From the sequence record PV763039.1: a stretch of 64,000 nt of DNA; one strand, written 5' to 3'. The notes under the pieces were generated by a model. It had not been told where the DNA came from. It saw only the letters and a list, made by a program, of their open reading frames with translations, and ran no database searches. This document shows positions 41,577-42,862 of the stretch, piece after piece. The stretch is from Escherichia phage WPEC6. The stretch's first letter is position 1, and each line of letters begins with the position of its first letter. A program made the translations under genes and the position numbers.

Positions 41577-42062
41577 ATGTTTCAAGTAAATGTCAATGTG
41601 CATAATAGTTACTCTGATTGTGAAACGTGTGGCTATAATTCATCTAATGTTATTCGTATTAGTGGCGATTTAGGAGAAGCTTCTTTTGGAGAAGAAGCAA
41701 GTTGCTTTAGTGGTATGGATGCAGAATGGAATGATATTGCACATTGGTTAGTGAGCAAACTAAAAGAAAAAGAGAAACCATTTCCTACTCTGCTTGATCG
41801 TTCTCTTGTGGAAGATGCAGGTAAAGCATATGCAGACTATGCGTATGCAGACGGGAAATATTTGGAAGATGATAAGGCTAACCATTTGCTTTATGTTTAC
41901 TATGAAGCTGAATCTGCCTACGATAATTATTACAGCATGTCTAACATCCTACGTCTGTTTGCAGAGTTTGATATTTATTTCGAAGTAGAATTTTCAGAAG
42001 ATGATACTTACGAGTACAATTCTTATGATCCATTTGAGGAGGAAGAATGCCAAGACGAGTAA
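41577..42062 (+). CDS. hypothetical acidic protein
   Basis: ORF track 161 aa; RBS aggaggg. Confidence 0.55.
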   Translation: MFQVNVNVHNSYSDCETCGYNSSNVIRISGDLGEASFGEEASCFSGMDAEWNDIAHWLVSKLKEKEKPFPTLLDRSLVEDAGKAYADYAYADGKYLEDDKANHLLYVYYEAESAYDNYYSMSNILRLFAEFDIYFEVEFSEDDTYEYNSYDPFEEEECQDE

Positions 42063-42862
42063 TTTTTGTAAGCGGTGCAGGTTTAAGCGCAGACAGTGGG
42101 ATTCGAACATTTAGAACAGACACAGATAGTGGTCGTGCTTTATGGGAAGAATATGATTTAGAAGAGGTCTGCGATATTGGAGCTTTCCAAGCAGGTTATC
42201 GTGTTAGAACATCTCCAGATCTTCCAGTGGTCGGTGGTGTAGACGAGAACGGTATGGATTTGTATGCCAAAACACACGAATTTTATAACAAAAGACGTGT
42301 TGAGCTTAAAGATGTACAACCTAATGCTGCACATATTCAAATAGCAAAGTGGTTTAAGGAATATCCTAACCAAATAGTAAACTTGACAACAAACGTTGAT
42401 GATCTACTAGAGCGAGCAGGTGTAGACAGAGATTCTGTTATTCACGTACACGGATATCTTCCTGAAGTAGTTTACCGTATGCATCCTGGAGATTACAAAA
42501 CACTGGTAGATATTGGTTACAATAGTATAAACATAGATGATTATAACTGGGTGAAGCCTAATGTTGTATTTTTTGGTGAGGCTGCACCTTTGTATGCAGA
42601 TATGGCTCACTTGTTCGATACTTTGACCATGCAAGATTTGGTTGTAGTAGTAGGATGTTCAAACCAAGTTATCAATTTTAATTGGGAATTATTTCCTGCA
42701 CTTAGTATGGGTACAAAAATGGTTGTAGTTAACCCTGGAGTTAATTACGAAGAAACACTTCTCTATGAAGATCGTGGAGTTTTTGTTTACCGAGAAAAAG
42801 CTGCAACAGCCTTCAGCAATGAAGGTTTCATTAAAATGGTCGAAGACCACTTAAACAAATAA
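42047..42862 (+). CDS. Sir2-family (sirtuin/CobB-like) NAD-dependent protein
   Basis: GAGLSADSGIRTFR, QPNAAH, TTNVDDLLERAG, VIHVHG match Sir2 catalytic core; no CxxC zinc module seen. Confidence 0.8.
   Translation: MPRRVIFVSGAGLSADSGIRTFRTDTDSGRALWEEYDLEEVCDIGAFQAGYRVRTSPDLPVVGGVDENGMDLYAKTHEFYNKRRVELKDVQPNAAHIQIAKWFKEYPNQIVNLTTNVDDLLERAGVDRDSVIHVHGYLPEVVYRMHPGDYKTLVDIGYNSINIDDYNWVKPNVVFFGEAAPLYADMAHLFDTLTMQDLVVVVGCSNQVINFNWELFPALSMGTKMVVVNPGVNYEETLLYEDRGVFVYREKAATAFSNEGFIKMVEDHLNK

Follow-up and report, generated by a model that had tools for sequence, protein, structure and literature searches.

A CobB-like sirtuin gene without zinc ligands in a two-gene unit of Escherichia phage WPEC6

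The Sir2 locus of phage WPEC6

The window studied here, that is, the whole 64,000-nt stretch of Escherichia phage WPEC6 DNA that was analysed (sequence record PV763039.1), belongs to a Phapecoctavirus (phAPEC8-like) and is rearranged relative to both Escherichia phage WPEC1 and Mt1B1_P17. On its plus strand, which carries all the features described below unless another strand is given, positions 42047..42862 form a single reading frame of 271 codons and a stop. A Shine–Dalgarno sequence, GAGGAGG (42036..42042), can be read 4 nt before the ATG. The open reading frame is a real gene for a Sir2-family protein. Its product, a single-domain protein of 271 amino acids carried by a lytic phage, matches the Pfam SIR2 family (PF02146) with 80.5 bits (E = 1.9e-22), above the gathering cut-off of 24, and aligns end to end (residues 2–271, E = 2.8e-104) with PHROG 2162, ‘Sir2 (NAD-dependent deacetylase)’. 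Existing annotation already lists an identical protein under the name ‘NAD-dependent protein deacetylase’. Homologues were found by tblastn in 983 phage records, with identities of 52–60% in T5-like phages, 46% in V5-like (rV5-like) phages and 36–37% in Vibrio phage nt-1 and Serratia phage BF. These records show an intact, conserved gene, which is therefore under selection.

The first-pass annotation had assigned the product to the Sir2 family on the basis of sirtuin/CobB catalytic motifs, and this assignment is borne out by the profile match, by the motifs themselves and by the sequence and fold matches presented below. The Rossmann NAD-binding motif GAGLS (residues 10–14; 42074..42088) is followed by TFR (21–23) and by FYNKRR (79–84), which aligns with FYNARR of CobB and contains the class III Y-x-x-R signature (Y80-N-K-R83-R84; 42284..42298). 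Further along lie TTNVD (114–118; 42386..42400), which corresponds to TQNID with a Q to T change, HVHG (133–136), VVFFGE (173–178), GCS (203–205) and VNPG (228–231). The catalytic histidine, His135 (codon 42449..42451), aligns with H116 of Sir2Tm, and the H135-G136 pair shows no variation across 133 aligned sequences. In an alignment of 48 homologues with 56–76% identity to the query, 51 columns are invariant and the residues of the NAD pocket, the catalytic site and the substrate tunnel are all invariant or nearly so; the invariant positions include G10, A11, G12, S14, F22, R23, N116 and D118 as well as F79, Y80, R83 and R84. The AlphaFold2 model of the protein has a mean pLDDT of 91.4 and a pTM of 0.87.

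Immediately upstream, up161 (41577..42062) encodes an acidic protein of 161 amino acids (pI 4.05; PHROG 9509, no assigned function). Because its last 16 nt overlap the start of Sir2, the two genes are probably translationally coupled and co-transcribed. A terminator-like hairpin with an 11-bp stem, six GC pairs and a T-rich tail (41534..41558) is the likely 5′ boundary of this unit, and a second one, AAGGGGCTTCGGCCCCTT followed by a T-rich tail (42870..42887), lies 8 nt past the Sir2 stop codon. Beyond the first hairpin, up217 (40865..41518; 217 amino acids; PHROG 8514, no assigned function) recurs upstream of Sir2 in two Sir2 clusters. It has no Pfam match, and the search for homologues yielded just 14, none of them annotated; its AlphaFold2 model is mediocre (pLDDT 70.9, pTM 0.53) and a Foldseek search against the PDB returned nothing better than E = 0.17. 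On the other side, down90 (42906..43178; 90 amino acids; PHROG 15991, no assigned function) is flanked by the Sir2 terminator and by a bidirectional terminator (43182–43205).

The gene up161 lies immediately 5′ of Sir2 in six loci, and its homologues retain a CxxC motif and a third cysteine. The idea that up161 supplies a zinc knuckle in trans was considered and found no support. The probable coupling of Sir2 to this conserved acidic CxxC protein would fit a mono-ADP-ribosyltransferase that modifies a specific protein or nucleic-acid target of the host, as do enzymes of the SirTM type and SIRT4/6, possibly together with up161. Sirtuin chemistry permits ADP-ribosyl transfer, and most non-deacylase sirtuins are treated as ADP-ribosyltransferases by Iyer et al. 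2022 (PMC9503650). A macrodomain partner, the hallmark of SirTM, was however not seen among the neighbours: Pfam detects no macrodomain in up217, up161 or down90, and none is annotated within 12 kb on either side of Sir2 in the colinear reference genome. The catalytic histidine and the class III Y-x-x-R pair are kept, nothing points to any target, and we regard such an ADP-ribosyltransferase as improbable.

Relationship to CobB and class III sirtuins

Among proteins of solved structure, the closest relative by sequence is E. coli CobB (1S5P, E = 7.6e-19), followed by Sir2Af2, Sir2Tm, Sir2Af1 and SIRT5. The AlphaFold2 model gave a concordant result in Foldseek: CobB 1S5P was the best match in the PDB (E = 2.4e-17, TM-score 0.85 normalized to CobB), Sir2Af1 and SIRT5 came next, and all 50 of the 50 matches listed were canonical sirtuins (CobB, Sir2Af1/Af2, SIRT5, SIRT2, Hst2 and Sir2Tm). 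The Y80-x-x-R83 pair and the class III membership of the closest solved relatives place the protein in this class.

The NCBIfam models for CobB (NF040867, NF001755 and others) are matched far under their cut-offs, with 106.3 bits against 243 for the subfamily model and 85.9 against 320, an observation that also counts against a deacylase function. Because of these scores, the protein represents a CobB-like paralogue lineage and not a CobB orthologue. In SIRT5 and CobB, the Y/R pair binds acidic acyl groups. The invariance of Y80-x-x-R83 thus suggests, by analogy with these two enzymes, that succinyl and malonyl groups may be accepted besides acetyl.

Loss of the zinc ligands

The zinc site of canonical sirtuins is needed for their structural integrity. 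The phage protein contains only two cysteines in its whole sequence, C42 and C204, and has no CxxC; when it is aligned with Sir2Tm and CobB, it shows Y, Y, gap and gap in the four columns of the zinc ligands. The absence of a CxxC...CxxC ribbon reported in the first-pass annotation is thus confirmed. The module as such has not been deleted, contrary to the wording of that annotation, which described a protein lacking the zinc-binding module. The loss concerns the four ligands and the greater part of the second knuckle, while residues 136–169 (42452..42553) persist as a beta remnant that is free of cysteines and close in length to the canonical module. From the catalytic histidine to FGE, the phage protein counts 44 residues, CobB 46 and Sir2Tm 49. 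The AlphaFold2 model, confident across the remnant, retains beta strands at 136–144, 152–155 and 168–173, the last of which returns to the Rossmann fold.

Among the 133 aligned sequences, nearly all of which are representatives of clusters at 50% identity, the Cys4 site is missing in 54, including a coherent clade of 21, and CxxC...CxxC is present in 79, two of them reference sirtuins; a ribbon of this kind is frequent in the family but not a universal trait. Zinc ligands are missing in all of the 19 closest cluster representatives. Related clusters at 50% identity still carry CxxC...CxxC, and the loss is a derived trait within the CobB-like lineage. The zinc-bearing relatives are all metagenomic proteins from short contigs. 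At the active site, the Cys-less clade and these relatives differ only at position 115, where Q (81% of the relatives) has given way to T (90% of the clade); both groups conserve N116 and D118.

Skliros et al. 2016 (PMC5107563) had already reported the absence of the zinc site in the sirtuins of phiSt2, phiGrn1 and KVP40. The gene, the loss of zinc and the family, for which hundreds of genomes already carry annotations, are all on record, and no new object is described here. The concern voiced by these authors for phiSt2, together with the structural requirement for zinc in canonical sirtuins, would fit an inactive or decaying passenger gene whose small domain has been destabilized. Several observations argue against decay, namely the very high conservation of the catalytic residues seen in the 48 homologues, the occurrence of the Cys-less state in at least 54 of the 133 sequences with its coherent clade, and the confidence of the model through the remnant module. 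In addition, a homologue is transcribed during phiSt2 infection (PMC5107563). We consider a passenger gene very improbable.

Comparison with defence-type SIR2 domains

Loss of the zinc ligands is common to the SIR2 domains of defence systems, and a kinship with these NADases had been implied at first. No credible match supports it. Against the PADLOC profiles, the protein gave only PDC-S65 (E = 0.017 over 36 residues), a partial match at chance level; in Pfam, up to E ≤ 1, it matched PF02146 only and not SIR2_2. No sensor or partner (SLOG, HerA, pAgo, TPR/CTD) is fused or adjacent to this single-domain protein of a lytic Phapecoctavirus genome. A defence-type SIR2 identity was rejected, as neither PADLOC nor Pfam returned anything credible.

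An NAD+ glycohydrolase could still be envisaged as a manipulator of the NAD pool that shuts down host metabolism, excludes competing phages or blunts NAD-dependent immune signalling. The shared loss of zinc ligands would fit such an enzyme, and so would the genes for NAMPT and NMNAT, which could offset NAD+ consumption; 13 of the 65 loci surveyed below, including those of Serratia phage BF and Mydovirus-like phages, have such genes no more than 8 kb from Sir2. However, a phmmer search with Serratia phage BF seeds found no NAMPT or NMNAT homologue in the window, and the phage protein has the fold and motifs of acyl-transfer sirtuins with an intact substrate tunnel. Moreover, depletion of NAD+ would hurt a lytic phage, and the phage strategies known from the NARP3 paper rebuild NAD+; that paper, devoted to NAD reconstitution by phages, names Sir2 solely as a host defence. 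An NADase role is thus unlikely in our opinion. Three activities had been proposed at the outset, namely deacylation of host proteins, consumption of NAD+ and interference with NAD-based immunity; the sequence lends support to the first one only.

Gene neighbourhoods and a predicted role in RNA repair

The viral clade to which these sirtuins belong was defined by Iyer, Burroughs, Anantharaman and Aravind 2022 (PMC9503650, section 3.7.3), who recognized three types of gene neighbourhood and predicted a KptA-like role in RNA repair. All three types were reproduced here. Among 65 Sir2 loci, which represent 20 clusters at 70% identity, 47 have a gene for RNA-end processing near Sir2: 29 have an adjacent HAD gene (HAD_SAK_2, 0–442 bp from Sir2), 13 the RNA ligase/cREC/kinase cassette and five a single gene. 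In T5-like phage Spc35, HAD_SAK_2 (PF18143) overlaps Sir2; in Vequintavirus DrSchubert, cREC (PF20274) and an RNA ligase lie directly 5′ of Sir2; in Serratia phage BF, Sir2 is flanked by a 2H/Acb1-like gene and a Nudix-cREC gene. This linkage to enzymes of RNA ends and cyclic phosphates in other lineages is not explained by a plain protein deacylase and counts against that function.

These data bring in the main rival explanation, a Tpt1/KptA-like RNA 2′-phosphotransferase, or another ADP-ribosyltransferase with a phosphorylated substrate, serving phage RNA repair. The 2′-phosphate of a broken or religated tRNA or other RNA would attack NAD+ in the sirtuin site, and the cREC/2H, HAD and Nudix enzymes would degrade the product. 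In the yeast Tpt1/Cpd1/Poa1 pathway, the product of Tpt1, Appr>p, needs disposal enzymes. The cyclic phosphodiesterase, phosphatase and Nudix neighbours would fit such a disposal, and the carboxylate-binding Y-x-x-R pocket could perhaps hold a phosphate.

Phage WPEC6 itself carries ten tRNA genes and an RNA-repair cassette, detected by phmmer and Pfam on the minus strand (19188..21971), with genes for an AAA_33 kinase (19188–19589), an Rnl1-type RNA ligase (19593–20537), a calcineurin-like phosphoesterase (20527–21090) and cREC (21594–21971). In related phage lineages, this cassette adjoins Sir2 directly upstream. Here, it is about 20 kb from Sir2 and on the opposite strand (about 28 kb away in the colinear reference genome), and the Sir2 neighbours up217, up161 and down90 have no recognisable RNA-end-processing domains (HAD_SAK_2, cREC, 2H, RNA ligase, kinase and Nudix). 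Other observations also weigh against RNA repair. The hydrophobic lysine tunnel is unaltered, which counts against a switch to an RNA-phosphate substrate, as such a switch should remodel the tunnel. Matched Salmonella-phage records number 289 for Sir2 and 15 for an Rnl1-type ligase; most T5-like carriers of Sir2 appear to have no such ligase, which makes it less plausible that Sir2 must act in a ligase pathway. With a median pI of 5.05, the family is acidic, unusually so for enzymes that bind RNA, although this evidence is weak. The roles given to cREC and HAD_SAK_2 are themselves predictions of the group of Iyer et al. We know of no sirtuin that has a phosphate as substrate.

On balance, a Tpt1-like activity seems unlikely to us, albeit deserving of serious attention. 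We are equally doubtful about the scenario in which the Cys-less phage sirtuins, as Tpt1-like 2′-phosphotransferases, would join the phage kinase, Rnl1 ligase and cREC in mending tRNAs that host defences have cleaved, the sirtuin gene having been moved in Phapecoctavirus to a separate unit in which up161 could target or regulate the enzyme.

Discussion

As a tentative best guess, we infer that the Sir2 gene encodes a protein lysine deacylase that is active without zinc. A catalytically competent sirtuin of the CobB/SIRT5 type (class III) would be made from the two-gene up161–Sir2 unit of a lytic Phapecoctavirus, its small domain being metal-free, with a cysteine-free beta hairpin in place of the zinc ribbon. 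By the standard sirtuin mechanism, NAD+ would enter the Rossmann cleft (G10-A11-G12, S14, F22, R23, N116 and D118) and an acyl-lysine of a host or phage protein would enter the hydrophobic tunnel formed by V117, H135, V173, F176 and V208. The acyl oxygen would then attack C1′ of the nicotinamide ribose with release of nicotinamide, and His135 would activate a ribose hydroxyl, so that the acyl group would leave as O-acyl-ADP-ribose. The analysis establishes the fold, the motifs, the ligand loss, the membership in the clade and the arrangement of the operon; enzymatic activity, the class of substrates and the biological targets are inferences.

The literature on phage sirtuins offered predictions only (Skliros 2016; Iyer 2021, 2022) and no published experiment was found; a review of bacterial sirtuins discusses neither zinc nor phages. 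Sirtuins are nevertheless present in nearly a thousand lytic phages with sequenced genomes, including T5-like, rV5-like, phAPEC8-like, KVP40-like and jumbo phages, and the value of our finding is to point to an easily testable question about their function. If they are protein deacylases, phages would rewrite the acyl-proteome of the host during infection. If they are Tpt1-like, they would be the first sirtuins with a nucleic-acid phosphate as substrate. The sirtuin fold would then support a novel chemistry, and phage counter-defence against tRNA-cleaving immunity would gain a new step.

Comparison with known systems clarifies the position of the WPEC6 protein. With CobB (1S5P, 6RXJ) it shares the fold and the GAGxS, FR, N-x-D, HG, FGE and G-x-S motifs, and with CobB and the other class III sirtuins it shares the F-Y-N-x-R-R signature. 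The identity to CobB is only about 27%, and the zinc module, which has four cysteines in CobB, has none in the phage protein. TQNID, GTS and VYP of CobB are replaced by TTNVD, GCS and VIN, and the phage protein has an insertion of approximately 25 residues (about residues 48–72) in the helical part of the small domain. The changes of TQNID and of VYP in the substrate loop count against a deacylase. CobB is the host-encoded sirtuin of E. coli, whereas its counterpart here is a gene of a lytic phage; that the host already has CobB is a further point against the need for a phage deacylase.

The defence SIR2 NADases (ThsA, DSR1/2, SIR2-HerA and SIR2-pAgo) have in common with the phage protein the Rossmann fold, NAD+ as substrate and the lack of a Cys4 ribbon. 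They differ from it in being host-encoded, and their profiles show no HMM similarity to the phage protein, in which both the acyl-lysine tunnel and the signature of class III are retained. The likeness to Tpt1/KptA would be a functional analogy at most, consisting of a predicted NAD+-dependent two-step ADP-ribosyl transfer with release of nicotinamide; the folds are unrelated and no sequence similarity exists.

The closest ties are to other phage proteins. Members of PHROG 2162 from T5-like, rV5-like, KVP40-like and jumbo phages are matched over their full length, and the closest of them likewise miss the zinc ligands; the fused extra domains of more distant relatives are WG repeats, GIY-YIG, RHS or none, and give no clue to the function. 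The Phapecoctavirus gene differs from the other PHROG 2162 loci by its location in an up161–Sir2 unit beside up217, and not next to HAD_SAK_2 or a ligase/cREC cassette. Finally, the protein is homologous to the exemplars of the clade of Iyer et al. 2022 (PMC9503650), from Serratia phage BF, Escherichia phage V5 and T5-like SP15, and the carrier phage has the cREC, RNA ligase, kinase and phosphoesterase genes; the neighbourhood link that defines this clade, whose activity is predicted, is missing at the WPEC6 locus.

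A sirtuin without zinc ligands

The first-pass annotation had called a Sir2-family protein without a CxxC...CxxC zinc ribbon at 42047-42862, and this call is correct at those coordinates and far above chance. The gene (hereafter Sir2) is a single plus-strand ORF of 271 aa, with a ribosome-binding site, GAGGAGG, 4 nt 5' of the ATG on the same strand. The product scores 80.5 bits with the Pfam SIR2 model PF02146 (cut-off 24) and along its whole length matches PHROG 2162, "Sir2 (NAD-dependent deacetylase)" (E 2.8e-104). Sirtuin motifs are found in both the N-terminal half, GAGLS (10-14), TFR (21-23), TTNVD (114-118) and HVHG (133-136), and the C-terminal half, VVFFGE (173-178), GCS (203-205) and VNPG (228-231). 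CxxC is absent, the only cysteines being C42 (codon 42170-42172) and C204 (codon 42656-42658). C42 is invariant among 48 homologues and C204 is kept in at least 90% of them; C42 is also present in 79% of the zinc-bearing relatives, and the same position is Ala in CobB and Phe in Sir2Tm.

The same annotation described the zinc-binding module as lacking. The cysteine ligands are indeed gone, but the module itself persists as a Cys-less remnant of similar span: 44 residues from the catalytic His to FGE, where CobB has 46 and Sir2Tm 49. Y-R-M-H-P-G-D-Y stands in place of the first knuckle (CxxC) and the second is mostly deleted, while the AlphaFold2 model retains strands 136-144 and 152-155, with strand 168-173 leading back to the Rossmann fold. 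We aligned the query, CobB, Sir2Tm and 130 full-length representatives of 50%-identity clusters. The four zinc-ligand columns read C-C-C-C in 79 of these 133 sequences and are cysteine-free in 54, including all 19 cluster representatives nearest to the query. In a neighbour-joining tree of sirtuins made with the zinc region left out, the query lies within an entirely Cys-less clade of 21 clusters, and the next node is Cys-less in 29 of 32. Tree and alignment together indicate that the zinc site was lost early in a CobB-like lineage, where a predicted metal-free beta module took its place; the large clade defined by this loss is nested within relatives that bear zinc. The missing zinc ribbon, which the annotation noted as a trait in common with NADase-type SIR2 domains of defence systems, is thus not a likeness by descent.

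Type of sirtuin and active site

Among solved structures, E. coli CobB (1S5P, E 7.6e-19) is nearest in sequence, with Sir2Af2, Sir2Tm, Sir2Af1 and SIRT5 next in order. An AlphaFold2 model built with the 48 homologues as input (mean pLDDT 91.4, pTM 0.87) gave CobB (E 2.4e-17, TM 0.85 normalised to CobB), Sir2Af1 and SIRT5 as best PDB fold matches, and canonical sirtuins accounted for 50/50 among the matches listed. The family-invariant stretch F79-Y80-N-K-R83-R84 pairs with F-Y-N-A-R-R of CobB; in class III sirtuins (SIRT5, CobB) such a Y-x-x-R pair is the hallmark of acidic acyl-lysine substrates. Sequence and model place the phage protein among class III/CobB-like rather than defence-like sirtuins. 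It is no CobB orthologue, because its scores with the NCBIfam CobB models lie far under their cut-offs. A defence-type SIR2 identity was ruled out: PADLOC returned only a 36-residue match (E 0.017) and Pfam SIR2_2 none.

The Cys-less clade and the zinc-bearing relatives were compared column by column. Residues of the NAD pocket, catalytic site and tunnel are the same in both groups (G10, A11, G12, S14, F22, R23, Y80, R84, N116, V117, D118, H135, G136, V173, F176, E178, G203, S205, V208, N229). The sole active-site difference is T115 for the Q of TQNID (90% T versus 81% Q), making Q115T the only active-site change that goes with zinc loss. The intact tunnel, the class III signature and CobB as nearest fold point to an ordinary acyl-lysine sirtuin, and we tentatively predict a protein deacylase, at somewhat under an even chance. 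Activity as an NADase or as an ADP-ribosyltransferase appears improbable, each to the same degree, and an inactive protein very improbable; what is left of the probability goes to none of the readings named here.

Formally, the Tpt1 reaction runs parallel to that of sirtuins: C1' of NAD+ is attacked by a nucleophilic oxygen, and the adduct is then resolved by the ribose 2'-OH. The kept catalytic residues therefore cannot tell one from the other. A Tpt1-like transfer with a phospho-substrate is favoured by the family-wide gene context, which points to RNA-end or ADP-ribose-cyclic-phosphate metabolism, a matter on which the Sir2 locus of the window is neutral; we consider this reading rather unlikely. 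Our literature search found no experimental work on any phage sirtuin, and in the phage NAD-reconstitution paper (NARP3) Sir2 appears only as the host's weapon.

Gene context in other phages

Besides the window, we took 59 loci from viral contigs and five from annotated phages (65 Sir2 loci in all, 20 clusters at 70% identity) and scanned their ORFs with iterated profiles seeded with annotated neighbours. The three neighbourhood types of Iyer et al. 2022 (PMC9503650; see also PMC7824862), from which that paper predicted a KptA-like part for the clade in RNA repair, were reproduced. A HAD_SAK_2 phosphatase (PF18143) lies 0-442 bp 3' of Sir2 on the same strand in 29/65 loci (3 clusters, T5-like), and in 13/65 (rV5-like, Mydovirus-like) a cassette of phosphoesterase, Rnl1 ligase, cREC and kinase is no more than 3.3 kb away. 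NAD-salvage genes occur within 8 kb in 13/65 loci. In Serratia phage BF, Sir2 stands between genes for a 2H/Acb1-like protein and for a Nudix-cREC fusion, with NAMPT and an NMNAT-type cytidyltransferase immediately 5'. The BF gene annotated 'RNA ligase' (5281-5724 of its locus), immediately 5' of the sirtuin, has a better match to Pfam Acb1, an anti-CBASS 2H phosphodiesterase (E 3.6e-15), than to the 2'-5' RNA ligase family. Because of this match, the BF neighbourhood could represent counter-defence against cyclic-nucleotide signals rather than RNA repair.

The window phage owns the cassette, but away from Sir2. On the minus strand are an AAA_33 polynucleotide-kinase-like kinase (19188-19589), which unlike T4 Pnkp has no fused 3'-phosphatase, an RNA_lig_T4_1 (T4 Rnl1-type) ligase (19593-20537), a calcineurin-like Metallophos phosphoesterase (20527-21090) and a cREC (cyclic-phosphate-processing receiver) domain protein (21594-21971). 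Ten tRNA genes (Met x2, Arg-tct, Ser-gct, Asn, Thr-tgt, Gly-tcc, Gln-ttg, Pro-tgg, Ile-gat) occupy 25702-27627 (+). In the colinear reference, Mt1B1_P17, cassette and Sir2 lie on one strand, about 28 kb apart. An Rnl1-type ligase occurs in 727 phage records, only 15 of them from Salmonella phages, and Sir2 in 289 Salmonella-phage records; the Sir2-ligase link is loose at genome level. Mt1B1_P17 gp037 (13858-14391 of its locus, beyond the window) is a COG3236 gene annotated 'GTP cyclohydrolase II'. COG3236 corresponds to the NADAR domain, so that gp037 would join the NAD/ADP-ribose network that Iyer et al. describe.

Neighbours of Sir2 in the window

A DNA methyltransferase (PHROG 757, 40182-40865, +) lies two genes 5' of Sir2; the same plus-strand block of the reference genome (locus L001) also holds a second methyltransferase and DprA-like, NinI-like Ser/Thr phosphatase, PhoH-like and HslV-like peptidase genes. 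The next gene, up217 (217 aa, PHROG 8514, 40865-41518, +), is a 5' neighbour of Sir2 in 9/65 loci (2 separate clusters), among them the window, L011, L043 and L057. Its product is rich in invariant residues, G160-G161-P162 and, shortly after, I165-T166-H167 among them; AF2 modelled it weakly (pLDDT 70.9), and a PDB fold search gave no match. At the end of up217 stands a near-consensus sigma-70 promoter-like site (41490-41519, +; TTGACA, 18 nt, TATAGT, extended -10 TG; 11/12 matches), just 5' of a terminator-like hairpin (41534-41558) between up217 and up161. This order of promoter, hairpin and up161-Sir2 is odd, and the hairpin might be part of a 5' leader.

The 161-aa product of up161 (PHROG 9509, 41577-42062, +) is very acidic (pI 4.05; 37 Asp/Glu versus 10 Lys/Arg), and its homologues retain a CxxC (C15, C18) and, as third cysteine, C43. 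The protein could partner or regulate the sirtuin, or be its substrate; alternatively, it may be unrelated and DNA-mimic-like. The 3' end of up161 shares 16 nt with the start of Sir2. A GC-rich hairpin (42870-42887) whose tail is rich in T lies 8 nt past the Sir2 stop, followed by down90 (PHROG 15991, 42906-43178, +) and a bidirectional terminator (43182-43205), then convergent minus-strand genes. From the overlap and the flanking hairpins, up161-Sir2 looks like a two-gene unit. Pfam gave no credible domain for up217, up161 or down90, the last having a weak sub-threshold DUF5050 match (E 0.0068, 16 bits versus cut-off 27). In Phapecoctavirus, Sir2 has moved out of the RNA-repair neighbourhood and shares a unit with up161, the acidic CxxC protein.

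Distribution and comparison with known sirtuins

The 3 kb around Sir2 match Escherichia phages WPEC1, WPEC2 and WPEC4 at 100% identity and many Phapecoctavirus genomes at 99.6-99.7%, among them Mt1B1_P17, Schickermooser, ESCO13 and phAPEC8_ev052; there the gene already bears the annotation Sir2 or NAD-dependent protein deacetylase. Gene order in the window departs from colinearity with the reference Phapecoctavirus Mt1B1_P17: 5036-28214 corresponds to 93622-116802 (inverted), 28210-56096 to 116800-144588 (forward) and 62264-64000 to 91883-93619 (inverted). Coordinate mapping places the 28.2-kb junction inside gp243 of Mt1B1_P17, and the identical WPEC1/2/4 records are likewise broken up relative to that reference (16 places in each). 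Such breaks suggest that the source genome either is truly rearranged or contains an assembly artefact.

Homologues were found by tblastn in 983 of 50,697 phage records, with identities of 68-100% in Phapecoctavirus and relatives, 50-62% in T5-like Demerecviridae, 55-58% in Mydovirus-like Klebsiella phages, about 46% in Vequintavirus (rV5-like), 36-37% in KVP40-like Vibrio phages and 37% in the Serratia jumbo phage BF. Among 1.84 billion cluster representatives, searched exhaustively, 2,191 matched at E <= 0.001.

The zinc-free sirtuin finding is correct, yet already known: absence of the zinc site in Sir2/CobB of Vibrio phages phiSt2, phiGrn1 and KVP40 was published in 2016 (PMC5107563), with T5, SPC35 and other phages also listed as carriers. 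The gene, its annotation, its family, the zinc-site loss and a functional prediction are thus on record. Our analysis adds the class III/CobB-like placement, the Cys-less ribbon remnant, the clade of zinc loss, Q115T and the up161 unit in Phapecoctavirus. The phage family is acidic (median pI 5.05) and differs from canonical sirtuins in having GCS for GTS and V-I-N for the V-Y-P loop.
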